NCBI GenBank assembly: GCA_964509335.1
Contig: CAZDXB010000005.1
Coordinates: 16,926 to 80,925, forward strand
Direction: 5' to 3'
Source of the DNA: an uncultured Hyphomicrobiales bacterium
GTDB lineage: Bacteria > Bacteroidota > Ignavibacteria > Kapaibacteriales > UBA2268
Length of the DNA stretch: 64,000 nucleotides
This document shows, piece after piece, positions 1 to 41,802 of this stretch (its first letter is position 1; the number at the start of each line of letters is the position of its first letter). A program made the translations under genes and the position numbers. The notes beneath the pieces were generated by a model, which ran no database searches, had not been told where the DNA came from, and was given only the letters and a program-made list of their open reading frames with translations.

Positions 1-1532
1 GCGTCTGCGTCAGTTAAAGCTTCCGAGGATTCTAATGTCCCTATATAAAAAGGAGCATCCGTTTCCGTGGGATATCCCTCGGTTCTCGCTCTAAATGCCG
101 GATACATTCCGTCTTGCAAATAAAGCATCCAAGCGCCTTCCTCGGGAGAACTCGGACCGCCGCTTGAAGCGACTATAGCCGGTTCTACGCCGCTTTCGGC
201 GACGCCGGCTTCGTTCAAATTAACCCAAGCTTCTACGGTCAATTGAGTGGCGTTCGAATAGCTATCCTTCGTCCTCAAATACTCGTCGGTACCATTGAAT
301 TGAACAAAGAACAATCTTGAAATTCCAAAAACGCTCTCGCTTTGTCCGTAAGTAGAAGTCGTACTTCTATTATCGATATCCGAGCCGACTCCTGAAGTTG
401 ATAGTTGAGTCAATCTTACCTTGGCGTTTTCAGACCTGTTCGAAAAGCTCTCGTCTGAAGCCCAAATCACTCTAACTATCCCGTCGTAACCGTCGCCGCC
501 GGACGTTAACGGGTCGCCGTCGGCTTTAGTTATAATATAACCGGGAACGCCGCCGAAGCGCGTTTCCAAATCGCCCGAAGCGTAATTGTCGTAATCCGAC
601 GTCTTAATAGAATCGCCAGTTTCGGCAAACCTCATTACGTCCGTCCAAGAAGAACCGCCGTCCAGCGAATAAGTCATCTCATACGCAACGTAAGGAGTAC
701 CGTAAGAATAACTGTCCGAATTAATCAAACCGCTACGCTCGAAATATACGGGATAACCCGCCACAGGCATCGATAAGTATTGAGCGTCCCTATCGACCGA
801 TTCGTTCGGTCCTCTGGGGTTCAATATCGTGATGCCTTTAATATTAGTTTCCGCTGGGTCGTTATAAGTAACGTCCGAAAGCTCGATTGTAGTTCCGTCA
901 ACGTCGTTATATGAATACGCCGGATAAGCTCTGGTATTATGCCCAATGCCTACCGTTGACGTATCGCTTAACGATGAATGGTCGGTAATATCAAAGACAA
1001 TCAAAGCGACAAAACTGCCTAGTCCGTCAGTCCCCGGTTGAATGCCTTGAGTCGAAGCATCTCCGCTGAAATTTACCTCAATTTCGCTATAGCCGTATCC
1101 AGAACCGTCGGGGTAAATCGAACCCGTGTTCACTTGAATCGCCGAGTATCCGTTATCGTTATGAAAAGGCGATTCTATCGCCTGATACGGATAATCGGGT
1201 ATTTCGTCGGTTTGCTCACGATTAACGTCCGTTATAACAGAATCGGTTTCGTAATAAGTATAATCATCTGGAGCCGCCGGATCTAAAAAATCGCTTCTAT
1301 AATTAATAGAAAAAGTGAAGTCTCCTAATTTTGGAGCGCCGCTAGAAAGCGATTTAGCCCAAATCTCGGCTCCTACTTGATCGCCAAGCCTACGAACTTT
1401 AATCGTAAACTCATAGTTTTGCGCGCTCAAAATATCCGCGCCAAGTATTAGCAATGCCGTCGAAAGAGCGAGGAACCACTTCAATATCGACTTGCGTCCT
1501 CGTCTTTCTGTGTTAAGTCTTTGTGCTAACAT
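1..1532 (-). CDS. Large secreted cohesin-like/LamG protein, paralog of 7656..13706; runs off the left edge of the window
   Basis: Not in the ORF track. Manual translation from ATG 1532: MLAQRLNTERRGRKSILKWFLALSTALLILGADILSAQNYEFTIKVRRLGDQVGAEIWAK...GYPVYFERS...SNATQLTVEAWVNL...EGAWMLYLQDGMYPAFR. Colinear with the 2016-aa protein, and the same frame holds at both ends of the interval. Confidence 0.9.
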   Translation of the reverse strand, partial: MLAQRLNTERRGRKSILKWFLALSTALLILGADILSAQNYEFTIKVRRLGDQVGAEIWAKSLSSGAPKLGDFTFSINYRSDFLDPAAPDDYTYYETDSVITDVNREQTDEIPDYPYQAIESPFHNDNGYSAIQVNTGSIYPDGSGYGYSEIEVNFSGDASTQGIQPGTDGLGSFVALIVFDITDHSSLSDTSTVGIGHNTRAYPAYSYNDVDGTTIELSDVTYNDPAETNIKGITILNPRGPNESVDRDAQYLSMPVAGYPVYFERSGLINSDSYSYGTPYVAYEMTYSLDGGSSWTDVMRFAETGDSIKTSDYDNYASGDLETRFGGVPGYIITKADGDPLTSGGDGYDGIVRVIWASDESFSNRSENAKVRLTQLSTSGVGSDIDNRSTTSTYGQSESVFGISRLFFVQFNGTDEYLRTKDSYSNATQLTVEAWVNLNEAGVAESGVEPAIVASSGGPSSPEEGAWMLYLQDGMYPAFRARTEGYPTETDAPFYIGTLESSEALTDAD

Positions 1533-1613
1533 AATATTAATTCCTTTTTGATTTATTTTAAATAACACTTATTTCAAGTTAAATCCAACGCTAAAGGCAA
1601 AAGGGGGATACCC

Positions 1614-4600
1614 TTATTGGGTATCCGCCTTATAATCCGTTTGCCTATGTAATACATAAACTCTATAAGGTGTTAAACTGTATTCGCCGTCGGCGCTATA
1701 TATTTTCACATAGTAATCGCCATTCGGCAAATTGTTTAGTACTAACACTTCGTCTTCGGTACCGCTTATCTTCGACCTTCTTAGCAATCTTCCATCCGAG
1801 CGATATAACTCTATTGTATAGTTCTCTGGCAATCCCGTTAAATTCACTCTGATGTTGTTGTAATTGTTCTCAAAATCGGGTCTAAAGCTAAACCAGTCAA
1901 CGTCGCTCGCTGAACTAATTAAGCCCGAATACGAAGTCCCGTCCGAATCTATGAACTTCGCGTCCGTTTGCACGTCGTTTGACTCATAAGAATCGGCTAT
2001 TCTACTATTCGGATTGTTTGTAGCGTCGGATGTGTTGTAATTCACAGTCGTGTTATCTGTAGTAGTGTTGTCTCCGGACCCTGTGTTATACTCAAACGCT
2101 TTAAAGTAATACGTCTGACCATATTGCAAGGAAGTTACGTTCACGGTATTGCCCGTGCCGGTGTAAAGAACGTATCCTTGACCTATGGAAGTTCCGGAAC
2201 CGTATGCCGCGTCAGCGTTGGTAAACGTCGCCGATTGATCGCTCGGAGTCTCGCTAGTCGATATTGCCGAACCGGCTTTGCCGATTAATACGACTTCATC
2301 TCCGTCTCCTCGCACCCAATTAACAGTAACTTGAGTGTTTGTTCCTAACGACATATCGCTGAACGAAATCTCGTTTGCTTGAATCGCGGGTTCCGGAGCT
2401 AAAGTGTACCTACTGCCAGATGCGTATTGCGATACAAAGTAATTCTCTTTAGCGGAGCTGCCGTTAAACTCATAGACTCTCGCGTAATACTGTGTATTTG
2501 GCACCAAGCCGGTTACGGTTACAGTATTGCCGTCTTCCTTGTAAACTACGTAACCTACGCTCGAACCGCTACCAATAGCTGAACCGGAACCATACACAGT
2601 ACTGGCTGTATAGGTGTTAGTGTCGGTCGGAGTAGTAGTCGGGTCGGCTGTTCCAACAACGACGAGCGAATAATCTCCGCCGCCGGAACTTGGCTTAGTC
2701 CAAGTCAATTGCATCGAATTAGCGGTTACGTTCGAGAACGTTAAACCGGTCGATTTCGATGTCGGTTCGCTGTTCTTAGTCGTGAAATTAGCTTGGTCTT
2801 CGTAGGTATTCGTCGTTCCGTCCGAAGCTTCATCCCAAGTAAGATAGTTAGCTCCATAACCAGAACCGTTATATTTATAAACTTTAACGTAATAAGTAGT
2901 CTCGCCGGATAGACCGGTTAAATTAACCGAGCTTCCAGTTCCTTTATAAACTACTACGCTTCCAGTTCCCGTTGTTCCGTTTGTCGAAGCGGGACTTGAA
3001 AAGTCCGCCGAAGCGTTGTAATCTATACCGTCTTCGGGATTAGCAGGCATACTTCCGGCTTTAACCACTACCAAAGCGTCGTCGCTGCCGGCGTTCGTCC
3101 AATTTACGGTGGCAGTAGAAGCTTCGATATCCGCAACAGAAACGCCGTCAAAGAATGTAGTCGGCTCTGAATAATAAACCGTTATATCGCTCAAAGTGTC
3201 TGCCGTCAAGCTCATTCCGGCTGTAGTAGCCGCTTTTAAACTAAATTCGCTTGATGTGCTTTCCGTCGTAAACTGCAAGTTCTCAACCTTTCCGGTACTG
3301 TTGTTTACCGATAAACTTATAGTGTTGTTAGCGTTCAATGTCGTTCCGCCTAAAGGCGTCAAAGTTATCGTAGTCGCTTGGTCAACCTTCTGCGGATAAC
3401 CATTGGCGTCAACGGCTTTAACTTGCACCACAATGTTTTCGTCCGCGATTATTTCGTTTTCGCCTTTAGCTTTATCGTCGTCGGAATTCAAAGCGTCCAT
3501 TGAAAACGCGGTAAACTCTAATTTCGTAGGCGAGCCGGGTATTGGGGCGCTCTTGACAGTCAACGAATTGCCTTCGTAAGGACCGCCTTCAGGAACGGTA
3601 GCCGGACTCGTTAAACTTACGTCCGAATAAGAGTTAATCTTGCATTTTATTGTTCCATTCGCGTTGGCGTCCGACTTTACGTCCACTATTACAATATATT
3701 CAGTGGTTTCGCCGGCAGTTAAAGACTCGCCTAAACCGCTAAACGTCAATATTCCGGTGCTTTCGTCTATATTCGCTATAGAAGATAAAGCGCCCTCTCC
3801 ATTATCTTTTATACCGTTCTTATTAGCGTCGTTATATAATTCAAAATTCTCAAAATCGTCATACTCGGCGCCGTCGCCTACGGTTACTTTGACGTTAACC
3901 GAATTGAAAGTTATCGATTCCGCGCCTTCGGGAGTGTCGAGAGAGAATCCGTAAATAGTCTGGTCGTTCGCGTTCTTCTCCAGCGGTCCCGACGACGGTG
4001 AGTTCGCCGAACTTAACGCTATGTCTAAAGCTCCAAACGAATAAGTCGGACCTGTTATCGTTTGATTCATCTTATAGATATTATTCATAGTCATATCGTC
4101 TTGGTCGAATTCGGCGTAAATAGACGGCGTCGATGAATTAACCGTCGAATTTACGTCAGCCACTATGAAATAATATTCTGTTTGACCGGCTGTAAAGCTT
4201 TGCGCCAAACTTGAGAACTGAACTGTGCTTTCGGATAATGAACCGGTAGCTTCAGCCGTACCATAAGCGTAATCAGATAAATCGCTGTTGTTATCTTTAT
4301 ATATTTCAAAATCAGAAAATATTCCCGAAGGAGTCCTATTGAAGTCTAAGTTCAGAGCGGTAAATTTATCTTCCGCAGAGCTAACGTCCGAGGTCGCCGT
4401 CAAGCTGAATCCAAGAATAGTTTTATTCGTTGAATTAGCCGCCAGCGGCGATTCGTCAACTAAGTTATCGTTGTGTATATTCTCTGTCGGGAAATACGCT
4501 ATTTTTAGGAACTTAGGAGCTACCATATAATAGCCGGTATTTCTATTTATCGACGATAATGTTACTTTGTTCGTTGAAGCTGTTACGCTTCCAGATGTAT

Positions 4601-7103
4601 GCCACCATTTCGTCGTTGTGCTAGATGCCGAACTTGTATACTCGCTCGCGTCGGCTATTTGAGATATATAAGCGGTGAGATACTCTTCGGTATTGCCGTT
4701 TAACTCGGACTCGTCGTAACCGAAGGTTGCCGATGTAGTACTCGTCAAATCAGTTCCCGTAACATAGAAATATCTCTCAATACTTGACAACCCGTCTATT
4801 GTCCTCGGTCTATGATACCTCTTAACTTGAATGCTCGTTCCGGCGTCTAATCCGCCAAATCCAAGACCTGACGCGTTAATGTCGGAGTAACCGACTTGCT
4901 CGCTAGTAGCCGGCGTGGCAATATATCCAGCCGAACCGGCTTTCGAACTAAGTACCGTATTGCCCGTTGATTCGGCGAGAGCGCATCCAGTATGGCTGAA
5001 CTGAATGAAATAATCGCCGTTTAGGTCAATATCGCCGTTGGTGAGGGTCAAAGTCGCTGAAGATTCGGCAAATGTCGCCGAAGCTCCCATATATAAATCG
5101 CCCTCCATAACCAAACCGTTTGAATTGTCCAGCTCAACGTCGTCCAAATGACAACTTCCATTATTCTTGAACCTTTGTTCGCCGGTTCCATTGAACAAAA
5201 CGTCGCCGTCTATGCCGTCGTTGCCGGTAAAGCTGGCGGTCGCTCCGCTAGCGACAATGAAATCGCCTTTTACCTTTAAGTTATTAGCGTTGTCGTCATC
5301 GTCAGCCGTGCCGGTAAATTTCAAACTATAAAACTGATGAGCGTCTTTCGTCGTTGTCGCGAAAGGATCGCCCGTAATCGAGAAAGTAACGATTCCGTCG
5401 CTCGCGTTAAACGCTCCTGACGAAGCGCTGCTTCCAAGATATATTTGATTTCCTACCGTGAAATCCGAACTAGTGTTTAAGACCTTGCCTGAGTTATCTT
5501 CGACTTTTACGTCATAGAACTTACAAGTTCCTTCGTTTGTAAGAGTCATAGGCGTATTCCCGCCAAGCGTTACGGTCGCGCTGTTGGTGTTGGCGTCAAA
5601 TTCGCTATTTCCTTTTATAGTTAAATCGCCCCAAATTGTAACCGTTGAACTAGAAGCTAAAACAACCTTTGTGTTGTTCGCGTTATCTCTTAAAGTTAAG
5701 TCGTTAAACATTAACCCGTCCGGGCTATTGTTTAGATTTTCAATCTTTTTATCTCCCGTTTGTCCGGTAGTATCAACAAAAACGACCGTCGAGGGAGCCG
5801 TAAATGACGCGCTCGAATTACTATAATTTCGAAAATCTCCAGTCAACATTAAATCCGTATTCGAATAAAAAGTGTTATTAGAAGAATTATAGATTCTAAC
5901 GTCGTTTAATTGCATAATTCCGTTGCTTGAAACCGACGTTCCTACGTTCGCCGAGGCGGTCGTTTCAAGGAAAGTCATAGTTCCAGAAGTCTGAACGAAC
6001 GAACCGGTTCCCTCAACTGTCAAATTATTGCCTCCAGTCGAAAAACCGTTTATCGTCGCGCTCGAAGCGGTAGTTATGTGTGAGCCGTCGGTTACAGTCA
6101 AATCAAAGAAACTGATGTTTGAGTTGCCCGATAAAGACTTAGGCGAATTCTTCGAGCCGTTGTTGTCAAATTTAAGGTTGCCGGCAGTCGCTAAGTATGC
6201 GCCGCCGCCGCCTTTATCGAAATTCCCCGTTACGGTGTAACCCGTACTGGGCGAGAATGTTCCCGAATTGCCTGAAGTATTAAAATAAACGTTGGCAAAT
6301 TCACAATCGGCGGGAGCGTCGCTTACTACTTTAGGCGAAACATATACGTTCCCCCCAGCGTCGTCGTTTATCGTTATAGTTCCCGACGATGCAGAAAATT
6401 TAGCGCCGTTCTCTAAATGAAAGTAACCTTCGTCAATTGTGAAATCAGACGAAGTCGTTACGTTCGAAGCCGTAGAAGCCAGCTTTAAACTATAAAGCGT
6501 CAACGTTCCCAAATCTGGAACGTCGATTGAACTATTCGCTCCGGTTATCGTGCAAGTGCCGCTAGACTGCGTAAGAGTCGTATTGTCGTTTAGAGTTAAA
6601 TCTCCGCCCAACTTAAAACTCTTGTCAATCGTCGCCGCCGAACCTTGCGGCAAGGTAAAATCGTTGAATTCGATGTTGTCTTTCCCAACGCAAGTTATCG
6701 CTTTCGAACTTGAATTGTCCATAATTATATTCATTCTGCCGTCGCTGTTGCTACCTACGATATTTGCCGTGTTGTCGCTTCCGTAGGTATATATCTTTTC
6801 TTTAACGGTCAAAGCGTATGTTCCGGATGTAGCGGGCTTTAAGGTTCCCGTTACTTCCAACCTATAAACGCTTTGGTCGCCGTTTAGGTACGCCGTTTGA
6901 CCAGTTGGAATATCAACATAGTCCGTTTCCGTTGGGACGCTGCCTCCGGTCCAGTTCGCGGAGTTTGACCAGTTGCCGCTAGTGCCTGTGGCGGCCGAAA
7001 ACGTAATAGTCGAAGACTGCCCCCAAGCCTGAGAGCCGCCTATCAAAGCTAAGACTATTGCGAGTAGAAAACTCAGATTAATTAAACGTTTTGTCTTTTT
7101 CAT
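1614..7103 (-). CDS. Giant secreted Ser/Thr/Gly-rich surface protein (beta-helix-like N-half, two Ig-like repeats, three FN3-like repeats, C-terminal PPC-like domain)
   Basis: Signal peptide (..SQAWG/Q); repeated EPT...TYYVKVYKYNG, QYYARVYEFNG and TYYFKAFEYN units; C-terminal DSYESND...SDVDWFSF...GDYYVKI typical of PPC domains. Confidence 0.8.
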   Translation of the reverse strand: MKKTKRLINLSFLLAIVLALIGGSQAWGQSSTITFSAATGTSGNWSNSANWTGGSVPTETDYVDIPTGQTAYLNGDQSVYRLEVTGTLKPATSGTYALTVKEKIYTYGSDNTANIVGSNSDGRMNIIMDNSSSKAITCVGKDNIEFNDFTLPQGSAATIDKSFKLGGDLTLNDNTTLTQSSGTCTITGANSSIDVPDLGTLTLYSLKLASTASNVTTSSDFTIDEGYFHLENGAKFSASSGTITINDDAGGNVYVSPKVVSDAPADCEFANVYFNTSGNSGTFSPSTGYTVTGNFDKGGGGAYLATAGNLKFDNNGSKNSPKSLSGNSNISFFDLTVTDGSHITTASSATINGFSTGGNNLTVEGTGSFVQTSGTMTFLETTASANVGTSVSSNGIMQLNDVRIYNSSNNTFYSNTDLMLTGDFRNYSNSSASFTAPSTVVFVDTTGQTGDKKIENLNNSPDGLMFNDLTLRDNANNTKVVLASSSTVTIWGDLTIKGNSEFDANTNSATVTLGGNTPMTLTNEGTCKFYDVKVEDNSGKVLNTSSDFTVGNQIYLGSSASSGAFNASDGIVTFSITGDPFATTTKDAHQFYSLKFTGTADDDDNANNLKVKGDFIVASGATASFTGNDGIDGDVLFNGTGEQRFKNNGSCHLDDVELDNSNGLVMEGDLYMGASATFAESSATLTLTNGDIDLNGDYFIQFSHTGCALAESTGNTVLSSKAGSAGYIATPATSEQVGYSDINASGLGFGGLDAGTSIQVKRYHRPRTIDGLSSIERYFYVTGTDLTSTTSATFGYDESELNGNTEEYLTAYISQIADASEYTSSASSTTTKWWHTSGSVTASTNKVTLSSINRNTGYYMVAPKFLKIAYFPTENIHNDNLVDESPLAANSTNKTILGFSLTATSDVSSAEDKFTALNLDFNRTPSGIFSDFEIYKDNNSDLSDYAYGTAEATGSLSESTVQFSSLAQSFTAGQTEYYFIVADVNSTVNSSTPSIYAEFDQDDMTMNNIYKMNQTITGPTYSFGALDIALSSANSPSSGPLEKNANDQTIYGFSLDTPEGAESITFNSVNVKVTVGDGAEYDDFENFELYNDANKNGIKDNGEGALSSIANIDESTGILTFSGLGESLTAGETTEYIVIVDVKSDANANGTIKCKINSYSDVSLTSPATVPEGGPYEGNSLTVKSAPIPGSPTKLEFTAFSMDALNSDDDKAKGENEIIADENIVVQVKAVDANGYPQKVDQATTITLTPLGGTTLNANNTISLSVNNSTGKVENLQFTTESTSSEFSLKAATTAGMSLTADTLSDITVYYSEPTTFFDGVSVADIEASTATVNWTNAGSDDALVVVKAGSMPANPEDGIDYNASADFSSPASTNGTTGTGSVVVYKGTGSSVNLTGLSGETTYYVKVYKYNGSGYGANYLTWDEASDGTTNTYEDQANFTTKNSEPTSKSTGLTFSNVTANSMQLTWTKPSSGGGDYSLVVVGTADPTTTPTDTNTYTASTVYGSGSAIGSGSSVGYVVYKEDGNTVTVTGLVPNTQYYARVYEFNGSSAKENYFVSQYASGSRYTLAPEPAIQANEISFSDMSLGTNTQVTVNWVRGDGDEVVLIGKAGSAISTSETPSDQSATFTNADAAYGSGTSIGQGYVLYTGTGNTVNVTSLQYGQTYYFKAFEYNTGSGDNTTTDNTTVNYNTSDATNNPNSRIADSYESNDVQTDAKFIDSDGTSYSGLISSASDVDWFSFRPDFENNYNNIRVNLTGLPENYTIELYRSDGRLLRRSKISGTEDEVLVLNNLPNGDYYVKIYSADGEYSLTPYRVYVLHRQTDYKADTQ

Positions 7104-7215
7104 GACTCATTCCTAATATTTGATAAATAATATTTAACTTACTTTCTCTCTTTGAAAATTTTTCGCATAAGCTATATAATATAAGCTATCGCCGCGATCG
7201 GTTAGAACCCTAATT

Positions 7216-7257
7216 TTACCCCGGCGACCGGATGTCTGGTAGTTTTAATTCTTTCAT
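7216..7257 (-). other. Candidate 13-aa leader ORF MKELKLPDIRSPG*
   Basis: GGGAGG Shine-Dalgarno-like sequence 5 nt before ATG 7257; stop lies about 110 nt upstream of the 1829-aa gene on the same strand. Confidence 0.3.
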
Positions 7258-7520
7258 AGAATCCTCCCTAATTGGTTAAACAATGCCCACTTCCTGTGGT
7301 AGTATATCTATTAGATTTCCTTCTTTTTCCAATGAACGTCTGAAATTCGTTATCGAAGTTTATCGGCTTCATTTTTTTAAACTTTAGCGCTAACTGAAAA
7401 AAAGTTAACCGCTTTTAATAAATAAAGTCCAAAAGCCGCTCTGTTTAAATTCCTAAAAAAACTTAAACCTCCGACGACAAATTCAAAATAATTTTTAAAA
7501 AACTAGGGATGAACAAATAG

Positions 7521-7560
7521 GAAAGCTCTTTCCGATTTCGCTTCGGAAACGCTCTTTTTT
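7521..7560. terminator. Hairpin, possible intrinsic terminator downstream of the 2016-aa gene
   Basis: TTTCCGA (7529-7535) / TCGGAAA (7543-7549) stem with T-rich tails on both strands. Confidence 0.4.
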
Positions 7561-7655
7561 GGCAAGATAACTTTGCATCCTCGCCTCTAAGGAAAGTTTT
7601 AAGACTTCCTTGTCTAAAAAGAAGCATAGCCGCCTCCTTTGTCAATCCCTTGATT

Positions 7656-10600
7656 TTATTTAATAAAACTAATCTTCCTGATAATCTTATAATTCTCAGA
7701 TTCAATCTTTACGTAGTAAATCCCTTCCGGAAATTCATTCAAGTCTAATTCAATTATGTTATAACCTTTATTATATATAACGGGTCCGATATTATTTAAA
7801 GTTTCTCCCAATGAATTTACTACGTCTATCCTAATTAGCTTTCTTTCGCGCGTTTCGAAATACAACTTCGCTATTCCAGAGCAGGGATTCGGATAAAACT
7901 CGCCGAAAGAATCGTCGATTTTCGAATACTCGACGTCCGTAGAGCTTACTATTCTAAAAACGTCAGATTTTCCGAAGCTCATATCGCTATCGCCGTTCCA
8001 AATAGCTCTAAGCAAGCAATTGTCGGAAACCGCGGCGTTGTCAACCCTCCAATCGTACTCGCCGTCCAATGCGAATACGCTATCCTCGATTGTCCTCCAG
8101 CTCGCGCCGCCATTCTCGCTCACTTGCATATCAAACCGCGCTACTCCCCGATAATTCCATTTCAATTTCTCTACCGAACCTAACCAAAGACTGTCGCCCC
8201 TTCTCGGTTTGATGAAATCTATATATCCTCTCAATATCTTAAACTCGCCGCTTCTGGCAATCTCGCTTCCGCTTTCCATATCGACCAATCTAACAATGGC
8301 GCTCTTTGTCGTTACGGAAGGAATATCCCACAACATAAATCCGTCCGAAGCGCTTACGTTAGAATCCAAAACGAACCAACTCGCTCCGCCGTCGCCGGTA
8401 AATTCGATTTTCAATCTTTCGTATCCGACAGTCTCCCAAATAATCGAATCACGCTCTCCGGCTTTATACAGCGGGTCGTAAGCGGAAGGCTTTATAATAG
8501 AAGCGCGGCTTCGTAAAATCGCAAACTCGTCGTCGCTCCTGTCCAATTCCTTCATAGTTTGCGCGTCTAAAATTCTTATCAAGTAATCGCTACCGTAAGA
8601 GTTTGGCGTAGTCCAAGAGCAAACGCCGTCCTTTACGTTTACCGTATCGCCGATAAAAGTCCAATTATAACCGCCGTTGTTAGAATACTGTATGAAAGCT
8701 GGAGCCGTCCCGTCGGTCTGCCATCTTATTTGTATTTCCTTATTTGCCGAAAAACCTTCGCCGCCATTCGGATAAGCTACTTCGGCGTCATATAAAATCA
8801 ACGGCTCGATGTCCTCGAATATGCCTTCTTCGGTAACGTTCACCGAATCGGTCGTATGAACGGAAGTTATTTCGTGCCATTTCAATACAACCGCGTTCTT
8901 CTTCGATTCCAACGCAAAACGTAGAGTTCCCAAATAAGTCTCCGCTCTCGGAACGTTTATCCCCGGCTTGTTCGAACGGGCGTCGTAATCTACTTCTATC
9001 GTCCTCAAATTAGGTATGGGTATCGTCGCCCCCGAACTTGGCGCGCTCTTCAATTCCGCGTAGCCGCTCGCCGTATCGTTGCGAAAAACGACGCTGTCTT
9101 TGCCCGTTAAATCGATAAACTCCATTACCGTAGGATTATAATCAACGCCAAAAGTCGCGTTAGCTAATCCAAAATCGACCCCTACGTTCTTTATATAAAG
9201 CGATAAATGAACGGTGTCTCGTCTAATCAAGGGTTCCGCGGTTACCACGTATTTAATTCCGCCCGCTAACGTATTTTCTTTCTTATTAACAATCTTTTTA
9301 GAATTTGCGAACTCATAATTCCGCTCGTCTTTTCCGCCGCCGACAATCAAATCTTCCGTTTCCTCTTGAGCTTGAGGAAAATCAACGTCGTGAATAGAAG
9401 ATATTTTGCCAAAATTCCTATCGACAATAGTTCTATCGTCGGCGTTAACGTAGCCGTCGCCCGTTACGTCCGAGCGAACTAATCCCGAACCGGCGTCTAA
9501 TCTAACGCGCACTCTATCGGCGGCGTTGATTTGGTTGTCCTGATTTACGTCGCCGCCAACCATAGCCGGCATAGCGTAACTCGAACCGCCCGCCGCGCCG
9601 CCGCTATAAATCAAGCCCGTAGTCGAGTATTGTTCTTTTGTCGAAGTTGAGTAAGCGTCGCCGTAAGCCGTATAAGCCCCGTATTCCCAAGGATTGTCGT
9701 CGGGTTTCAGCAAAACGTTCTCGTCTTCGCCGTTCCAAGAGGTAAAGTCCCAACCGGATTCAATTTCCCAAGTAGAAATAACGTCCCCTTCGTAAACGAA
9801 CGGAGCGGCGAAACGGGACATAATCGGCAAATGATTAATATGGTCAACCACCACCCAATAATCGTCGTCGGTTAAATCGGTAAAAACAAAGTTTACGTTC
9901 GCGAATCTATTGTTTCCGTTTTTTAAATTTGCCGGATCTTTTCCGTCGTATCCGTAAATCGATTCCGCCGAATCGACCAAAACTCCCAAGGAACCCTTAT
10001 TATCGGTGTAAAGCTTAATCTTTAATCCGCCGGTCGAATAAGTCGAACCCAAATCTCTCAGATTCCTGCCGGAAACAGCTCCGTCGTGCCTGCCTTCAAG
10101 TAAAGTTCTTATCGTAAAATTAGTTTCGGGCGTAATAGTAAAAATCGGTCCTTCAACCGTAATTGTATCGGTTTCCCCGTTAATAATATAATCGCCGGTC
10201 AATCTCAAACGAGCGTTAACGAGAGCGGCTGAAATAGGTCCTTGGTCCCTAAAAGTTCCGTCGTTATCTAAATCGGGGTCGGCAACGGAAAAATCCACTT
10301 GCGCGGCTATATAAACTTCCTCGCCTTCGCCTTCAAATTTATAAGATTCCGTCTCAGGGAAAGAAATCGACTGCTCTTGCGTTCCGTCCCAATATTTACC
10401 GCCGAGATACTGATAAGGCTGCACTAAATTACCTCCGCCCCCTCTGATGGAAAATTCAAGCGACGGAGCGACGTTTTGTTTGCCCGCTGTGAAACCCGTT
10501 CCGTTATAATCAAACCCAACCCAGCGAACTTTCACGTCGGTATCGGTATTAGCTACTTTTTGTTTGAACGCGGGCTCCGCTATTTTAAAATAAGGTTTTG

Positions 10601-13600
10601 TCGGAGTAAAACTGACTTCGCCGTTGTAAAATCTTATTATAGTAAGCGGATTAGTTTTCGAACCAATAGCTCTTGAATATCCATTCTCAATAAAAGCCCC
10701 GCCGTTAAATGAAAACGAGGAAAACAAAGAGCTTCTGTAATCCAAACCCAAATCGCCGGCTCTCGCCGTTAAAGCGCCTTGAATAAATTCCGTCGTTTCG
10801 GTTGGTTCGGCGCCGGTAGCGGTCGTATTGTTAGGAGAGCCTTTCCAAAACCTTATTTCTCGAATTTCTCCTATAAAGCCCGTTCCAGCTTCGCCAGCGA
10901 CGGCTTGGTGCCCGATATAAGTTGGATATCGATTTAAAGCGTCAACTGTCAAATCATTTCCCAACTGCCCTGTTACAGTTTCGCCTCTTTGCGCTTCGCC
11001 GTCGATGAAAAATCTTACTTCGGACGCCCCCGAACCGTCGTCTAATACTAAATACACTCCTATATGCGCCCAAGGAGTGTCTATCGCGACCGAATTCGGT
11101 CTGACAAGCGCTTTGTCCTCGTCGCTTAACGCGATTCTCTGGACTCCGGCGGCGTCGGTAACCGTAAATTGAAGCCTGCCAGTCGGCATAAGATTCAACG
11201 AATAATGCCCGAGACCGTCGTCTATGCCGTATTTAGATATTATCGGGAAACTCCCCTCTTCTTCGGTCGGAAATCTATAAGGTCGCGCCCAAGCTTCAAT
11301 AAAAGATTCGTTGGAGGTAAGATTAAAACCGCTTTCGCCGTCGATAAAAATTATCGCGTTTTCATCTCTTTTTAACGCGAAATAGCGAGCTACGTTGAAC
11401 TCGCCCGACTCGTCGTACAAGTTATCTTGATTCCTCGACTCCGCTCCCCTTATCCTTAATATAGTATTATGAGAATACGGATTAATCGTTCGCAAATCGA
11501 AACCGGAATCGTCGTTTTCCCAAGGCTCCCAGTATGTTTTCCCGTCTTCGATATCCGGAGCGTTGTCGTCGTCGATGTCCTCCGAATCGGGTCTTTTCGC
11601 GTAATCCCAACTATCGCCGCCGTCTAAACTATATTCTATTATAACGTCTTTTGAATCGCCGTTCTCAATATCTCCCAATCCGTAAGATACCCATCGAATT
11701 TCAAAAACTTCGCCTTCTTTATTCAAGACGCCCGCGTTTTCTACGGGAGCCGTTAGCGAAATATGCGGCATATCCGGTCTATAATAAACTTCAGAGTCGG
11801 CGTCGTTCTCGTCTGAATAATCGACGACTTGCAAGCCCTTTTGCATATCGGCGTCATTCGCCAAATCGTTCAGCGAGCCTTCGAAAGAATAATAAAGCTC
11901 AAGACTCCGCTTCAAGTCGCCGTAATCTTCGACGTCGGAGGGAGCTACTACGCCGGGAGTCCTTTGCCTTATCTGCTCTTGCGTTAAAGCCGTCCTCCAC
12001 ACTTGGACTTCTTTTATTCCGGCGGGCAAATAATCCGTTCCGTCGATTCCGTCGTTAGGATTTACGCCTATCCAGATTGGATGATTTGTCGTAAGCATTC
12101 GCACGTCGGTCGCGCTAACGTTTTTGTAATCGTCAACTATCTCGCCGTTTACGTATAAAACCGCCTCGTTGTTATCGACTGTCGCGGCTATATGAACCCA
12201 GTTCTTCGAATGCGCGTCGCTCAAAGGAGCGACGGGAGAAGCATTCTGCAACGCGATTACGTCCGACAAAGACGCTAAATAACCGTTCTCGCCTCTTCCG
12301 TCTATCTCCCTAACTCTGAAAGCCGGATACCTGCCGTCTTGCAGATACAAAATCCAAGAACCTTCGTTAGAACCGTTAATCGGCGAAGCGTCAGGTCCGA
12401 GCGACGAAACTATTATCGCCGGTTCCGAACCTTCAGGTTGATACTCGTTTAAATTTATCCAAGCCTCGACCGTTAATTGAGTGGCGTTGCTATAACTTTC
12501 CTCGGTTTTTAAATACTGAGATTCGCCGTTTAATTGAAGGAAGAATAGCCTACCCAAAACAAATTCGGCGTCGCTTTCGTCGTTCGTTTGCGAAACTGTT
12601 CTTAACGGCAAATCGCTATAGCCGTCGCCGTTCAAAATAGAAACTCTCATTTTAGCCTGTTCGGAGCGCTCGATAAAATACGGATTCTTTTTCCAAATTA
12701 CTCTTAGCGGCGAACGATAATTATCGTAAACAATCCTTTCGCCTTCTTGAGTGGCAATAATATAAGAACCGCCCGAAGCGGGATTAAATATATCGCCGCT
12801 TCGATATTGGGCTTGACTTCCCGAATGAGAAGACGCTTTGTTCGTTTCGGCTACGCGCCCGATTTCTTTCCAATTTTCGCCGGCGTCCAAAGAATAATCA
12901 AAGCTGTAAGCCAAATCCTCGTCCAAAGTTGCCGGAAACTGCTGGGGAGCGTCGTAATCCGCAGGACTAACGCTTCTTTCAAAGTAAATCGGATAGCCGG
13001 AGGAAGCGTAATCTCCAGAAAGCGACGCGTAATCCTTATCCAAATCCACAGCTTGGGAGCTATGATTGGGAGATAATATTGTTACTCCCACAATATTAAA
13101 ATCACCCGGGGCGGTAAACGTTACCCGCGGAGTTATTTCGGAGCTGTCGGCGTCGAAAACAACGCACGACCTAATCTCTTCGTCGTCGCTCCAAACTATT
13201 TCCGTTAAATCGCTTTCCGACGGGTTGTCTATTATATCGAACGCAAGCCTGCCGAGAAAACTCCCTCTGCCTTCCAAGCTTGGAACTACGCCTCCTTCGC
13301 CCAAAGAGTTCAAATTGATTTCAAGAGAATAATAACCTTCTCCGTAATTCTGAGAACCCAGAGCGCCGTAGCCGTTTTGGTTGCTAAAATTTGAGCTTAC
13401 GTTAATTATAGGAGAGCTTGCGTCTATATCGCTAGAAATTGAATCCGTAGTCGTTAAATTTTGGTTTTGAGCTGGAGTCAAATAATCGCTATTATATTCG
13501 ACGATTAAAGAAGCGTAACCGATTTTGGGAACGTCGGCGGCGTTAGCTTTAGCCCATAATTCAACGGCAATTTGGTCGAACAGCCGCCTTTGACGCAAAG

Positions 13601-13706
13601 TAAATTCGTAATCTTGGGCGGACGCCGATTCGCTTATAGTTACAAGCGCTAAGATCGTTATTACAATCTTAATTAGCAATGTCTTCTCAGGGCGTCCTCG
13701 CCTCAT
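7656..13706 (-). CDS. Secreted multidomain protein: cohesin-like, 2x LamG, Ig-like repeats, LEG/HxNH-type dockerin module, second cohesin-like domain, T9SS C-terminal domain
   Basis: LamG motifs TVEAWINL/WVHIAAT and FIEAWARP/WAHIGV; dockerin Ca-loops GDVNQDNQINAAD and SDVTGDGYVNADD (~9405-9557); cohesin-like VHLSLYIKN..LANATFGVDYNPTVMEF..LGTLRF (~8810-9260); C-terminal FYPNP...GIYYVKI...KISFIK. Confidence 0.85.
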   Translation of the reverse strand: MRRGRPEKTLLIKIVITILALVTISESASAQDYEFTLRQRRLFDQIAVELWAKANAADVPKIGYASLIVEYNSDYLTPAQNQNLTTTDSISSDIDASSPIINVSSNFSNQNGYGALGSQNYGEGYYSLEINLNSLGEGGVVPSLEGRGSFLGRLAFDIIDNPSESDLTEIVWSDDEEIRSCVVFDADSSEITPRVTFTAPGDFNIVGVTILSPNHSSQAVDLDKDYASLSGDYASSGYPIYFERSVSPADYDAPQQFPATLDEDLAYSFDYSLDAGENWKEIGRVAETNKASSHSGSQAQYRSGDIFNPASGGSYIIATQEGERIVYDNYRSPLRVIWKKNPYFIERSEQAKMRVSILNGDGYSDLPLRTVSQTNDESDAEFVLGRLFFLQLNGESQYLKTEESYSNATQLTVEAWINLNEYQPEGSEPAIIVSSLGPDASPINGSNEGSWILYLQDGRYPAFRVREIDGRGENGYLASLSDVIALQNASPVAPLSDAHSKNWVHIAATVDNNEAVLYVNGEIVDDYKNVSATDVRMLTTNHPIWIGVNPNDGIDGTDYLPAGIKEVQVWRTALTQEQIRQRTPGVVAPSDVEDYGDLKRSLELYYSFEGSLNDLANDADMQKGLQVVDYSDENDADSEVYYRPDMPHISLTAPVENAGVLNKEGEVFEIRWVSYGLGDIENGDSKDVIIEYSLDGGDSWDYAKRPDSEDIDDDNAPDIEDGKTYWEPWENDDSGFDLRTINPYSHNTILRIRGAESRNQDNLYDESGEFNVARYFALKRDENAIIFIDGESGFNLTSNESFIEAWARPYRFPTEEEGSFPIISKYGIDDGLGHYSLNLMPTGRLQFTVTDAAGVQRIALSDEDKALVRPNSVAIDTPWAHIGVYLVLDDGSGASEVRFFIDGEAQRGETVTGQLGNDLTVDALNRYPTYIGHQAVAGEAGTGFIGEIREIRFWKGSPNNTTATGAEPTETTEFIQGALTARAGDLGLDYRSSLFSSFSFNGGAFIENGYSRAIGSKTNPLTIIRFYNGEVSFTPTKPYFKIAEPAFKQKVANTDTDVKVRWVGFDYNGTGFTAGKQNVAPSLEFSIRGGGGNLVQPYQYLGGKYWDGTQEQSISFPETESYKFEGEGEEVYIAAQVDFSVADPDLDNDGTFRDQGPISAALVNARLRLTGDYIINGETDTITVEGPIFTITPETNFTIRTLLEGRHDGAVSGRNLRDLGSTYSTGGLKIKLYTDNKGSLGVLVDSAESIYGYDGKDPANLKNGNNRFANVNFVFTDLTDDDYWVVVDHINHLPIMSRFAAPFVYEGDVISTWEIESGWDFTSWNGEDENVLLKPDDNPWEYGAYTAYGDAYSTSTKEQYSTTGLIYSGGAAGGSSYAMPAMVGGDVNQDNQINAADRVRVRLDAGSGLVRSDVTGDGYVNADDRTIVDRNFGKISSIHDVDFPQAQEETEDLIVGGGKDERNYEFANSKKIVNKKENTLAGGIKYVVTAEPLIRRDTVHLSLYIKNVGVDFGLANATFGVDYNPTVMEFIDLTGKDSVVFRNDTASGYAELKSAPSSGATIPIPNLRTIEVDYDARSNKPGINVPRAETYLGTLRFALESKKNAVVLKWHEITSVHTTDSVNVTEEGIFEDIEPLILYDAEVAYPNGGEGFSANKEIQIRWQTDGTAPAFIQYSNNGGYNWTFIGDTVNVKDGVCSWTTPNSYGSDYLIRILDAQTMKELDRSDDEFAILRSRASIIKPSAYDPLYKAGERDSIIWETVGYERLKIEFTGDGGASWFVLDSNVSASDGFMLWDIPSVTTKSAIVRLVDMESGSEIARSGEFKILRGYIDFIKPRRGDSLWLGSVEKLKWNYRGVARFDMQVSENGGASWRTIEDSVFALDGEYDWRVDNAAVSDNCLLRAIWNGDSDMSFGKSDVFRIVSSTDVEYSKIDDSFGEFYPNPCSGIAKLYFETRERKLIRIDVVNSLGETLNNIGPVIYNKGYNIIELDLNEFPEGIYYVKIESENYKIIRKISFIK

Positions 13707-14113
13707 ATTTTCATCCTCCTTCTCAGAATTCCGTTTCAGTTTCTTCTTCTAATATTACAAAATATTAATAATTAGTAATATTATCGACCGAATTTTTTTT
13801 ATCTTTATATAAGGCAAAAAAAATTCAAATTTTATGCCATACACAAAAAACGAAGCGCTCCAAAAAAGTTTTCAAAAAAAATATTAACATAGTCAAAACG
13901 CTTTTTCTCTCGATTTCCCAAACGCCTAGAGCGAAGTAATTAAAAAAGTTTTAAACGGCGCCGCTTAACTGTTGATTTAAAAAAATTAAAGCTATCAGAT
14001 TAATTATTTCAAAAAACTCAAAAAATTCCTTATATTGTAGTAATATATTAATGCCGTTTAATAAAATTGAAATAATATATTAACATTATACTTACAATAA
14101 CAGGGATTTAAAA

Positions 14114-15010
14114 ATGAAAAAAAACTTTTTTCAAGGCGTCGTTACAGCGCTCGCAACGCCTTTTAAGAAAAAGGGCGATTTAGACTTTAAAGCGTTGGAA
14201 AAATCTCTAAAATTCCAAATCGACAACAAAGTTGACGGCATTTTGTTAGCTAGCACAACAGGCGAGAGTCCCGGACTTACGCTCAAAGAAAAAATGGCTC
14301 TTATTATTCGAGCTGTCGAATATTCGTCAAGTAAAGTCCCTTTATATATGGCTACCGGAACAAATGAAACTCACGAATCTATGGACTTAACCGCGATGGC
14401 TTTAGAAGAAGGAGCCAGCGCGGCTTTAATCGTTACGCCATACTATAATAAACCCACCCAAGACGGCTTATACGAACATTATAGAATTATCGCCGAGGCG
14501 GTGAACATACCTCAAATTATATATAACGTCCCCGGCAGAACCGGCGTAAATATGGAGCCGGAAACCGTTGTTAGTCTCGCCAACGACTGCAAAAATATCA
14601 TCGGTATTAAAGAAGCTTCGGGAGATTTAGAACAAATAATGGCGATTGTCAAAAACGCCCCCAAAGACTTCAACCTCTTAACCGGCGACGATAAAATCAC
14701 ATTGCCGGCTATGGCTGTCGGCGCGAAAGGCTGCGTTTCGGTCATCTCGAATTACGCCCCAGCCGAGTTCGTCAAACTAGTTCGATACGCTCAAAACAAT
14801 AAATTCAACGAAGCCGCGAAGATTCACTACAAGCTATTAGATTTAATGGAATTGAACTTCGTAGAAACTAATCCGATACCCGTTAAATACGCTCTGTCGC
14901 TTAAAGGCATAATGAAAGACGTTTACAGAATGCCGCTATTCCCGCTCACGGCGAGAAACAAGAGAAAATTAAAAGCGGAATTACAAAATCAGGGAATAAT
15001 CGAAGAATAG
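14114..15010 (+). CDS. dapA: 4-hydroxy-tetrahydrodipicolinate synthase
   Basis: TALATPF, STTGES, PYYNKP, YNVPGRT, IKEASG, ETNPIPVK motifs. Confidence 0.97.
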   Translation: MKKNFFQGVVTALATPFKKKGDLDFKALEKSLKFQIDNKVDGILLASTTGESPGLTLKEKMALIIRAVEYSSSKVPLYMATGTNETHESMDLTAMALEEGASAALIVTPYYNKPTQDGLYEHYRIIAEAVNIPQIIYNVPGRTGVNMEPETVVSLANDCKNIIGIKEASGDLEQIMAIVKNAPKDFNLLTGDDKITLPAMAVGAKGCVSVISNYAPAEFVKLVRYAQNNKFNEAAKIHYKLLDLMELNFVETNPIPVKYALSLKGIMKDVYRMPLFPLTARNKRKLKAELQNQGIIEE

Positions 15011-15016
15011 AATAAA

Positions 15017-16498
15017 CTACTTTACTACATTAAATCTATAGGTCTCGTAAACGTCGCCAAATGCGAATACAAACAAATAAGCTCCAGAAGACAACCCGGA
15101 GAGGTTTAAGTAATATTCATTCGACGATGATTGTTGAACGTCGGTAGATATTTCCGCTCCAATATTATTAAACAAACGAGCCTTGAAACCGTTTGCGTTC
15201 TTAGGCGTTTCTACTCTTATCATATCGCCGACTCTTCTTATGTTCAGTTTAGGCGTTAATCTCTCGTCGTCCTCCGTCTCAGTCATAACCGAAGTTCCGA
15301 ACGGAAAAGTATAACCCAAATCCGACATAGCAATAGCGCTCGTTATATTGGGCGCAGGCGCGTCGTTACCGCCGCTTTTATTTACTAACAAAGCGTTAAA
15401 CAGAACCCCGGTGTCATCCGCTAAGTTCTTTTGATAATCGCCTACCACTACGGAAGCCGTTTTTTCGGTTTCGTTCAAATTGGCGTAAATAAAACTATTT
15501 ACTCCCGAGAACAAATCCCCCTTTTCGAATCCTATCAGTTCCCAATCTTCGCCTATATCTTTCCAAGAAACGTCCATAGCCGCGGCTATATACGGCTCCG
15601 AAGCGTAAGCAGTAACGGGAACCCTTACCGCGTCTGTATTATTCGGCGGAGTATATAAAACTCGTTCCGATTGAAAATCGGGAGGATTAGATTTGCCCAT
15701 AGCAGTATGAGACTTCATAAAATTGAGCGGTATAATCAACATATCGAACGGCGTTATATTGCCGTCGCCGTCGCAGTCGGCGTAAGTTACGCTCGCGCTA
15801 TCCCAAGACAATACTCTCTGAGACATCCACAAAGCGCTGGAACTAACTCTCTTGAAAGTCCGAAAATTATCGTTCTGTCTGCCGTGATTCAAATGCAGAG
15901 CGATTTTATCCATATCGACTTCGTCAACGACGCCGTTGTTGTCGGTGTCGCCGGGCCAAACGTTTACGAAACCGTGTATATCGTAAACGGTAGGCTCGCT
16001 CGTCAAATCGAGAACTTTGCCCTCGCCTTCCGACTTTACCGTAGCGTGAGCGTTGGCAAACGAAAAAGTCGCCTGCCTGCCGTGCGGAGAAGTCTGCGAG
16101 ACGGCAAAATCCAAATGAATCACTTTAGGATTGTCCAAATGCGCTTCTTTTATAGGCTCGCCGGAAATTACAAGAACGTAAATCCTGCCCTGCCCCGATA
16201 TATCATTAATAATCGGTATTACTTGCGTAGTCGCGGAATCGCCGAAGCCGCCCTCTTGCCACTCCGAATACTTTATATAATCGACGTTGTTAAAAGCCAA
16301 CTCGAACTCCGCGCCGTTGCAATCTTCTACGTCTTCCAAAATTATGTCCACGCCGAAAAGATACGTCGCCGTAACGAAATTCGACCTCGCCGAATCGACG
16401 TCCGTTCTAACCAGCTTTATCGACTGAGCCGAAGCCGAACCGATTAACAAGACGGTCGAAACGATTAAAACCGCAAATATTTTGACTGCTTTTCGCAT
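15017..16498 (-). CDS. Secreted cohesin-like / dockerin / cohesin-like protein with T9SS-type C-terminal domain
   Basis: Signal peptide ..SASA/Q; GVDIILEDV..GAEFELAFN..VIHLDFAV; dockerin loops WPGDTDNNGVVDEVD and ADCDGDGNITPFD (~15706-15958); VRVPVTA..AAAMDVSW..GVLFNA; C-terminal LSGLSSGAYLF..YRFNVVK. Confidence 0.75.
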   Translation of the reverse strand: MRKAVKIFAVLIVSTVLLIGSASAQSIKLVRTDVDSARSNFVTATYLFGVDIILEDVEDCNGAEFELAFNNVDYIKYSEWQEGGFGDSATTQVIPIINDISGQGRIYVLVISGEPIKEAHLDNPKVIHLDFAVSQTSPHGRQATFSFANAHATVKSEGEGKVLDLTSEPTVYDIHGFVNVWPGDTDNNGVVDEVDMDKIALHLNHGRQNDNFRTFKRVSSSALWMSQRVLSWDSASVTYADCDGDGNITPFDMLIIPLNFMKSHTAMGKSNPPDFQSERVLYTPPNNTDAVRVPVTAYASEPYIAAAMDVSWKDIGEDWELIGFEKGDLFSGVNSFIYANLNETEKTASVVVGDYQKNLADDTGVLFNALLVNKSGGNDAPAPNITSAIAMSDLGYTFPFGTSVMTETEDDERLTPKLNIRRVGDMIRVETPKNANGFKARLFNNIGAEISTDVQQSSSNEYYLNLSGLSSGAYLFVFAFGDVYETYRFNVVK

Positions 16499-21571: not shown

Positions 21572-21710
21572 TTAGCGGAATCTCCCCGTCTTAAAATCAC
21601 ATCCTCAATCTAAGACGGAATATTCCGCCTTATAATCTCAAATAAAATTTAAGTCGGGAATTTCCGTCTTAAATAAAAATTGTTCCTCTTAGACGGAAAT
21701 AATCGGCTTA
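21572..21710. promoter_or_regulatory. Four 22-bp imperfect palindromes (consensus TAAGACGGAA-N2-TTCCGTCTTA) at 39-bp period; putative operator array of the fic gene
   Basis: Copies start at 21572, 21611, 21650 and 21689; the last ends on the A of ATG 21710. The repeats are seen directly; the operator role is inferred. Confidence 0.7.
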
Positions 21711-41599: not shown

Positions 41600-41802
41600 T
41601 TTCTTTCTCCTAATTATTGTCCAAAGCATTAATGAAAGTTAATAAAATTCTCGTAATAATAAAATATTGGGCTGTCGAAAAGTTTACATAAGACCGAATT
41701 TTTGATTTCCCCGCCTGCGCTTTCATAAAATATATTTAGCGAAAAGTTAGAAATTTTTTAACTTTAGCAACGATTATAATGCTAAAAGGCAAATTTACAA
41801 AT

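Follow-up and report, generated by a model that had tools for sequence, protein, structure and literature searches.

Candidate self-docking cohesin-dockerin proteins without enzymes among the type IX secretion cargo of a Kapaibacteria-like bacterium

Introduction

Cohesin-dockerin pairs are familiar above all for holding cellulosomes together, and their many non-cellulosomal copies are largely unexplained; Peer et al. reportedly reviewed the wide occurrence of such non-cellulosomal modules in 2009. Here we analyse three proteins (the trio) that combine both module types with tails of the type IX secretion system (T9SS), and whose genes lie in, or run into, the first 16.5 kb of a 64,000-nucleotide stretch of DNA, the window (positions 16,926 to 80,925 of contig CAZDXB010000005.1, assembly GCA_964509335.1). 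The trio comprises two paralogous giants, the A-type (2139 amino acids, aa) and the B-type (2016 aa), and a small protein of 493 aa. The host is an uncultured microbial-mat bacterium with a genome of 3.34 Mb (96.8% complete). All positions are window coordinates unless marked aa or contig. An earlier note on the sequence had read the locus as a non-cellulosomal surface assembly system.

Self-recognition within one protein has a precedent in Ruminococcus bromii: the cohesin of Amy4 binds the dockerin of the same protein, from which multimerisation was proposed (PMC4611034). The likeness lies in a cohesin and a dockerin on one polypeptide and in self-recognition; however, Amy4 is described there as a GH13 amylase of a Gram-positive bacterium whose binding was measured (PMC4611034), whereas the trio have no catalytic domain, two cohesins each, T9SS export in a diderm, and binding that is predicted only. 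A second precedent is Candidatus Stygibacter (Cloacimonadota), in which a cohesin protein with a T9SS-type C-terminal domain (CTD) was inferred to hold dockerin-bearing secreted proteins on a diderm surface (PMC8542988). There, tandem cohesins and carbohydrate-binding modules (CBMs) are reported on one scaffoldin, with the dockerins on chitinase-, amylase- and peptidase-like enzymes (PMC8542988); in the trio, by contrast, there are no enzymes and every dockerin protein bears its own cohesins.

The clostridial cellulosomal type I and type II pairs (PDB 1ohz, 5k39 and 4uyq) share with the trio the cohesin fold (Z 10–15), two calcium loops with a helix after each, and a predicted mode of contact that involves three cohesin strand segments and mainly the second dockerin helix. 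Unlike clostridial cellulosomes, the trio lack dockerin-bearing enzymes, a scaffoldin with CBMs and any anchor of the S-layer-homology or sortase type; they carry plug and socket on the same protein, and identity is only 8–19%. Lastly, the first cohesin of the small protein finds its best or near-best structural counterparts in cohesins of Clostridium perfringens glycoside hydrolases (2vo8, 2jh2, 2w1n and 2o4e) and of Archaeoglobus fulgidus (2xdh), which exemplify the use of these modules outside cellulose breakdown; the C. perfringens modules sit on large glycoside hydrolases, whereas those of the trio sit on LamG/Ig proteins with T9SS tails from a Bacteroidota-related lineage.

Non-cellulosomal cohesins and dockerins, self-recognising pairs, and a proposed T9SS-tailed cohesin scaffold are therefore already known. 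Our literature searches turned up no paper dealing with cohesin-dockerin proteins from Kapaibacteria or Ignavibacteria, and no description of the two Kapaibacteria families reported here, of their architecture, or of a genome with its entire dockerin set on non-enzymatic, cohesin-bearing proteins. The locus is an unusually clean case: the whole dockerin set of the genome resides on three non-enzymatic T9SS proteins with their own sockets, and both families are conserved in many Kapaibacteria-like genomes. Should the pairs bind, they would offer a simple model of how a diderm builds or stiffens its surface by plug and socket without enzymes, and would supply protein engineers with further cohesin-dockerin pairs that are orthogonal and very divergent. 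The analysis also assigns modules to two families that are now named only LamG-like or T9SS sorting domain proteins.

Three proteins with cohesins and dockerins

In the B-type giant, a signal peptide is followed by a cohesin, an Ig/BNR module, LamG, Ig, LamG, an undefined region, a LEG..HxNH module, a dockerin, a linker, a second cohesin, four Ig/BNR repeats and a T9SS CTD; the N-terminus is signal-peptide-like by eye. All modules that the earlier note had listed for this protein (N-terminal cohesin, two LamG domains, LEG..HINH, dockerin, second cohesin and T9SS-type tail) were found where it had placed them, with the dockerin refined from ~9405–9557 to 9414–9554 (aa 1385–1431). The small protein runs from a signal peptide through cohesin 1, a long dockerin, a linker and cohesin 2 to a T9SS CTD; the cohesin-dockerin-cohesin order proposed for 15017–16498 was thus borne out, and the tail is an addition to it. 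The A-type giant shares the N-terminal cohesin, the dockerin, the C-terminal cohesin and the tail with the B-type. Its open reading frame (ORF) extends upstream beyond the window and opens with GTG at 1568, and the start formerly given for it, 1532, is the first ATG. Within the window lies its N-terminal cohesin (~819–1424, aa 49–250; E 7e-52 with a custom N-cohesin hidden Markov model, HMM), while its dockerin (26.3 bits), C-terminal cohesin and T9SS tail (31.4 bits) are all upstream of the window.

The cohesins of the window escape a plain Pfam search. Against a gathering threshold of 24.1 bits for Cohesin (PF00963), hmmscan gave 13.0 bits for the B-type giant, in the module after the dockerin, and no match for the 493-aa protein. 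Orthologues do pass the threshold, both in the small family (P0015, 28.5 bits) and among the giants (P0216, 26.6; P0218, 26.3; P0225, 32.8), and the three giant matches sit directly after their dockerins; in the small family, two of 89 members match Pfam Cohesin at E ≤ 0.01. Predicted structures were more telling. The 493-aa protein, folded from an alignment of 89 of its 108 database relatives, reached a mean predicted local distance difference test (pLDDT) of 90.2 and a predicted template modelling score (pTM) of 0.73, and its cohesin 1 (aa 22–177) matched 2vo8 with Z 16.1 and a root-mean-square deviation of 2.5 Å (132 of 135 residues aligned); 49 of the 50 matches shown were cohesin entries, and the Foldseek ranking agrees. 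Likewise, residues 1378–1645 of the B-type giant, folded with 50 sequences (pLDDT 86.1, pTM 0.80), contain a module (aa 1481–1645, model residues 104–268) that matched 5k39_A with Z 11.4 and 2.7 Å over 138 residues, again with cohesin entries in 49 of the 50 matches shown. Identity to solved cohesins is 8–19%.

The N- and C-terminal cohesins of the giants are homologous by profile comparison (hhalign 98%). Using the same method, we found cohesin 1 of the small protein to have no significant likeness to cohesin 2 (6%) or to the giant cohesins (<1%). Since profile comparison leaves the cohesins of the small protein unlinked to each other and to those of the giants, at least three very divergent cohesin types occur here; and because hhalign found no such similarity, the assignments of cohesins 1 and 2 rest on structure and on the Pfam matches of orthologues. 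Compared with PDB chains, a profile of the small family picked up T9SS tails and, weakly, dockerins; it found no cohesin, 2xdh coming out at E 0.27.

The earlier note had considered that the putative cohesins might fold as unrelated Ig or CBM sandwiches; the match of two folded modules to solved cohesins (Z 16.1 and 11.4) speaks otherwise. It had also held the dockerin calls to be the stronger ones, which no longer applies, as after folding the cohesin calls are equally strong. Together, our results identify the modules as true cohesins and dockerins.

In the genome, the three proteins are also the sole matches of custom cohesin HMMs derived from both families. Ten weak six-frame Pfam Cohesin matches lie in other large ORFs, none of them above the cut-off. 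Separately, we noticed a T9SS-tailed protein of 1233 aa with VWA and HYDIN/ASH-type Ig domains (G000:C14:39272-42970, L087) that scores 26.3 bits with Cohesin as a whole protein, with no single stretch passing, and a T9SS-tailed protein with Ig domains (G000:C19:38712-41057, L088) that scores 15.4 bits; as judged from sequence, these two are possible extra sockets.

The genome contains exactly three Pfam dockerin matches (Dockerin_1, PF00404) in a six-frame scan of its 3.34 Mb. They score 26.3, 26.3 and 23.6 bits, all above the gathering threshold of 22.9, and correspond to the 493-aa gene, the 2139-aa paralog and the 2016-aa gene; the genome-wide census that the earlier note had called for thus places every match in the trio. 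The dockerin of the 2016-aa protein is borderline, with 14.1 bits by hmmscan of the protein alone and 23.6 in the genome scan. In each of the three dockerins, two 12-residue calcium loops are legible, in the B-type giant of the form D-x-N/T-x-D...D, and their aspartates do not vary across 89 sequences of the small family and 50 of the giant family. A helix follows each loop in the predicted models, and the giant dockerin is modelled as two helices with pLDDT 91–97. The dockerin of the B-type giant matches that of the small protein by hhalign (88.8%). The segment between the loops measures 43–48 aa in 89 small-family dockerins and 14–17 aa in the giants; the insert of ~30 extra aa is conserved and holds invariant residues. 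In the small family, this long dockerin matches Pfam in 76 of 89 homologues, with D184, D195, D241 and D252 invariant, and is joined to cohesin 1 by a junction of eight residues in all 89 sequences. Cohesins and dockerin are kept together across more than 100 homologues.

Two further observations concern dockerins beyond the trio. A 730-aa ORF (G000:C27:647-2836, L093) matches the custom HMM of the giants' dockerin weakly (E 5e-5, aa 664–707), and Pfam finds no dockerin in it. Elsewhere in the class, the long dockerin (profile positions 175–268) recurs as a stand-alone module just before T9SS tails, in tandem arrays of ~1,050–1,170-aa and ~500–600-aa ORFs of other families; 13 copies occur in one genome alone (G074:C1:2208929-2255892, partly covered by L082), and others in G005, G116 and G029. 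Their passengers are undefined regions or galactose-binding-like, DUF7402, BACON and CARDB domains.

The LEG..HxNH module directly before the dockerin of the giants is matched neither by Pfam nor by NCBIfam, a search of the ESM Atlas gave nothing usable, and its custom HMM matches only the two giants in the genome. It may be an analogue of the X-module.

Export without enzymes

Sequence matches support the trio as T9SS-type cargo, in line with the earlier description of T9SS-type secreted proteins. The tails are those of Por_Secre_tail (PF18962) or TIGR04183, the small-family profile retrieves the solved CTD 8glk_D (E 1.7e-7), and SprA, of the T9SS translocon, is found in the genome with 953 bits. 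GldM (TIGR03517) gave no match in the genome, a result that is uninformative, as the same model matched no control genome. Por_Secre_tail has at least 150 matches in the genome (150 scored of 208 candidates), and some three of these 150 or more T9SS cargo proteins bear a dockerin.

Neither Pfam nor NCBIfam revealed a catalytic or carbohydrate-active domain in any of the three dockerin-bearing proteins, and the same holds for their neighbours, which upholds the claim that the system includes no carbohydrate-active enzyme. We considered a cellulosome or a cellulosome-like enzyme complex and ruled it out because no catalytic domain was found on any of the three dockerin proteins and there is no other dockerin in the genome.

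As to other large proteins of this genome, three ORFs of 1,226–1,881 aa contain WD40 beta-propellers (G000:C1:202271-206074, C37:12032-15709 and C30:25128-30770; L086, L089 and L090); those on C37 and C30 are also T9SS-tailed, and WD40 is an unusual T9SS passenger.

Distribution and gene order

Database matches place both families in a wide range of Kapaibacteria-like genomes. For the small family there are 108 database relatives, and relatives also occur in 146 species-representative genomes; record titles are mostly Kapaibacteria, Ignavibacteria, Chlorobiota and Bacteroidota, and many are co-assembly bins labelled otherwise. The giant family has 172 relatives at E ≤ 0.001, and the 120 listed are 37–55% identical, most of them aligned over nearly the full length; the named ones are annotated as LamG-like or T9SS sorting domain proteins of Kapabacteria. 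In a tree of 50 giants, the two copies of the window fall into two old paralog clades, and all four pairs of giants sharing a contig split one per clade.

When 121 sampled genomes of the class were queried with a single protein, three of them proved to contain giants, with two copies each. The small protein, whole or mostly so, was found in seven genomes. A profile of the giants recovered both copies in G110 and no full-length copy in four of the seven (G031, G058, G020 and G049), in which the small protein is the only Pfam dockerin match.

A conserved three-gene operon was entertained and dropped: a giant occurs within 10 kb of the small gene in one of 80 small-family loci (L025). Two short partial giant matches lie near the small gene besides (L051 and L081), and the commonest flanking gene cluster is found in nine of the 80 loci. 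The sole conserved linkage that we found is between the A-type giant and a homologue of the 1829-aa protein of the window, which lies directly upstream of it in four of four genomes examined (its own, G110, G007 and the genome of L025).

From gene names read by eye, eight of the 80 loci have pairs of flagellin-like genes near the small gene, in most cases immediately downstream of it, and another cluster of eight loci, with L004 in both, has FliP/FliR/FlhB-like export genes after the small gene; the labels for the two clusters are L004, L009, L010, L015, L026, L031 and others, and L050–L055, L059 and L064. These neighbours may reflect lineage-specific synteny.

Proposed self-docking, possible assembly in trans and the alternatives

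We predicted the complex of the dockerin of the B-type giant (aa 1376–1442) and the cohesin that follows it (aa 1478–1645), using a 50-row alignment for each of the two. Three runs gave 0.81, 0.82 and 0.83, for an overall score of 0.82, compared with 0.00 for the best of three controls; the pass mark of the tool, reached by 58 of 80 solved complexes and by two of 110 mismatched pairs, holds roughly here, our own alignment having been used. The runs agree in at least 94% of contacts, with a pLDDT of at least 65 for the partner, and the predicted contacts involve cohesin strand segments 1515–1518, 1553–1577 and 1612–1623 and mainly the second helix of the dockerin (1419–1433). This surface would correspond to the canonical 8-3-6-5 face. 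The linker between dockerin and following cohesin is never short, measuring 34–115 aa in 50 giants and 15–40 aa in 89 small proteins.

The reading that we favour, with a probability of roughly 50%, is self-complementary docking with some assembly in trans. On the cell surface, each protein would probably clasp itself or connect with the others. The T9SS of this Kapaibacteria-like bacterium would export two anciently duplicated LamG/Ig giants of ~2000 aa and a protein of ~490 aa, each non-enzymatic, with one calcium-type dockerin and two cohesins, and between them accounting for every dockerin detected in the genome. As with other type A cargo, they would probably be fixed to the outer surface. 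Each dockerin would fit a cohesin of its own kind of protein; in the B-type giant, this would be the one after the dockerin, past a long floppy linker. The pair could close on itself or swap with a neighbouring molecule because the linker is always long, and the second cohesin of each protein would then allow head-to-tail links or cross-links on the surface, with the LamG and Ig modules presented as adhesin-like binding surfaces. The analysis itself establishes what the modules are, how they are distributed and that one pair is predicted to fit; calcium dependence, anchoring via a cleaved tail, binding in trans and the adhesin role are what we infer. The status of the small protein as the only Pfam dockerin match in four genomes without a detected giant points to a self-contained plug-and-socket protein.

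Several observations weigh against this reading. The complex score shows likeness to a working pair rather than binding, because many cohesin-dockerin complexes have been solved, and it covers one of 18 possible dockerin-cohesin pairs; of the prediction of all such pairs that the earlier note had outlined, the part run, on the giant dockerin and its following cohesin, passes. Conservation at the predicted interface is only slightly raised in the cohesin (0.59, versus 0.49 for the rest) and is lower in the dockerin (0.66 versus 0.78). Cis and trans binding fit the data equally well. The small protein is present in genomes where no giant was found, which speaks against a dedicated three-gene system, as do the single locus of 80 with a giant near the small gene and the position of the three genes on different contigs in G007 and G110. 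Pfam missed the giants' dockerins in G110, where the small protein alone scored, so the dockerin count is a lower bound and the only-dockerin argument for the four giant-less genomes is weakened. Elsewhere in the class the long dockerin sits on cohesin-less proteins, and partners outside its own protein exist there. Finally, the sequence records listed for 7656–16498 include no RNA record; they are DNA contigs from microbial-mat and other metagenomes.

The same modules might act only as an intramolecular clasp, which is possible, though we lean away from it: the dockerin would bind its tethered cohesin in cis, without swapping, to make a rigid, calcium-dependent joint by which a surface stalk is stiffened or oriented, and no multi-protein assembly would form. 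A tether raises the local concentration of the partner, and no linker is too short to allow closure in cis. Compact single-chain models also speak for a clasp. By our own arithmetic from the definition of pTM, worked from the scores rather than from coordinates, a docked giant fragment should reach ~0.80 and an undocked one ~0.62; the dockerin-linker-cohesin model attains 0.80 despite 43 disordered linker residues, and by this estimate it docks the dockerin onto the tethered cohesin. For the whole 493-aa protein, the pTM of 0.73 suggests a single body made up of cohesin 1, dockerin and cohesin 2, an arrangement that by estimate is fixed, and the constant eight-residue junction between cohesin 1 and dockerin is in keeping with this. 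However, the docked state of these models is deduced solely from pTM, and a clasp leaves each protein with a second cohesin that has no tethered dockerin; in the giants, the N-terminal cohesin lies ~1200 residues off and is conserved. The precedent of Amy4 also favours swapping and multimers (PMC4611034).

At the other extreme, the trio might form a self-assembling coat, that is, a domain-swapped, calcium-dependent branched lattice or fibre on the outer membrane of Kapaibacteria, S-layer-like or acting as a cell-to-cell 'Velcro' made of cellulosome components, with the small protein as a general cross-linker that would also polymerise alone where giants are lacking. We regard this as unlikely; the Ca2+-dependent lattice envisaged in the earlier note would be a case of it.

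It is quite improbable that the partners are to be sought on other scaffolds, with the dockerins of the trio plugging into cohesin-like modules of other T9SS proteins and its cohesins taking divergent dockerins in an open network. The ten weak six-frame Cohesin matches, the whole-protein score of the 1233-aa VWA/Ig protein, the dockerin-like match in the 730-aa ORF and the long dockerins on cohesin-less cargo in other genomes would fit such a network, but none of the ten matches passes the cut-off, the score of the VWA/Ig protein is a sum in which no single stretch passes, and Pfam found no dockerin in the 730-aa ORF.

There is similarly little chance that the folds are structural relics, serving as spacers or calcium-stabilised modules that bind no partner: low identity to solved cohesins, profiles of the two cohesin families that do not find solved cohesins (2xdh at E 0.27) and the poor conservation of cohesin 2 in the small family would suit this, but the aspartates of the calcium loops do not vary, the complex is predicted with confidence and with controls at zero, and both module types are retained together in more than 100 homologues.

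Gene layout and neighbouring genes

The first 16.5 kb of the window hold four long genes on the minus strand and one on the plus strand (Table 1).

Table 1. Genes of the first 16.5 kb of the window and modules of the two cohesin-dockerin proteins that lie entirely within it
Feature	Position	Strand	Basis
N-terminal 522 aa of A-type giant paralog	3..1568	-	ORF call; rest upstream of window
1829-aa secreted protein, three fn3-like modules	1614..7103	-	Pfam Pur_ac_phosph_N/fn3 matches
B-type giant, 2016 aa	7656..13706	-	ORF and module calls
B-type giant: T9SS type A C-terminal sorting domain, aa 1938-2012	7671..7895	-	Por_Secre_tail 35.9 bits (cut-off 27); TIGR04183 27.1 (cut-off 23)
B-type giant: C-terminal cohesin, aa 1481-1645	8772..9266	-	Fold match Z 11.4 to 5k39_A; orthologue Pfam matches
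B-type giant: two-loop dockerin, aa 1385-1431	9414..9554	-	Dockerin_1 23.6 bits (genome scan), 14.1 bits (hmmscan)
B-type giant: LEG..HxNH module, aa ~1185-1377	9576..10154	-	Directly before dockerin; many invariant columns
B-type giant: second LamG, aa ~775-957	10836-11384 (approximate)	-	Placed by eye from sequence
B-type giant: first LamG (Laminin_G_3), aa 393-579	11970..12530	-	Pfam 96.5 bits in 2 stretches
B-type giant: N-terminal cohesin, aa 30-212	13071..13619	-	hhalign to C-terminal cohesin family 98%, E 2.5e-13, 143 columns
Dihydrodipicolinate synthase (DHDPS)	14114-15010	+	Domain match
493-aa cohesin-dockerin-cohesin protein	15017..16498	-	ORF and module calls
493-aa protein: T9SS CTD, aa ~415-493	15020..15256	-	Por_Secre_tail 20.1 bits, below cut-off; 67/89 homologues match
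493-aa protein: cohesin 2, aa 290-405	15284..15631	-	Orthologue P0015 Cohesin 28.5 bits at its aa 302-414, mapped across
493-aa protein: long dockerin, aa 182-256	15731..15955	-	Dockerin_1 25.1 bits, cut-off 22.9
493-aa protein: cohesin 1, aa 22-177	15968..16435	-	Fold match Z 16.1 to 2vo8

The 1829-aa protein lies inside the range (1–16498) that the earlier note had assigned to cohesin-dockerin modules, and Pfam found neither a cohesin nor a dockerin in it. Its T9SS-tail matches are below the cut-off (Por_Secre_tail 15.7 bits, TIGR04183 19.8 bits), and by eye its C-terminus is nearer to a pre-peptidase C-terminal domain than to a T9SS tail.

The neighbours of the trio (DHDPS, restriction-modification genes, peptidases and transporters) are unrelated to it. 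Adjoining the gene of the small protein, the plus strand of 16763–19953 encodes a methyltransferase, a DpnII/BanI-like restriction endonuclease and another methyltransferase; with 0.36–0.37, its GC content is the lowest of the region, against ~0.44 around, and it is probably an acquired type II restriction-modification island. Just past these genes, a Fic/DOC family protein with Fic_N and helix-turn-helix domains is encoded at 21680–22858 (+). Further along, a 1412-aa ORF on the minus strand (37391–41629) is also T9SS-tailed, with Por_Secre_tail at 37400–37630 (contig 54325–54555).

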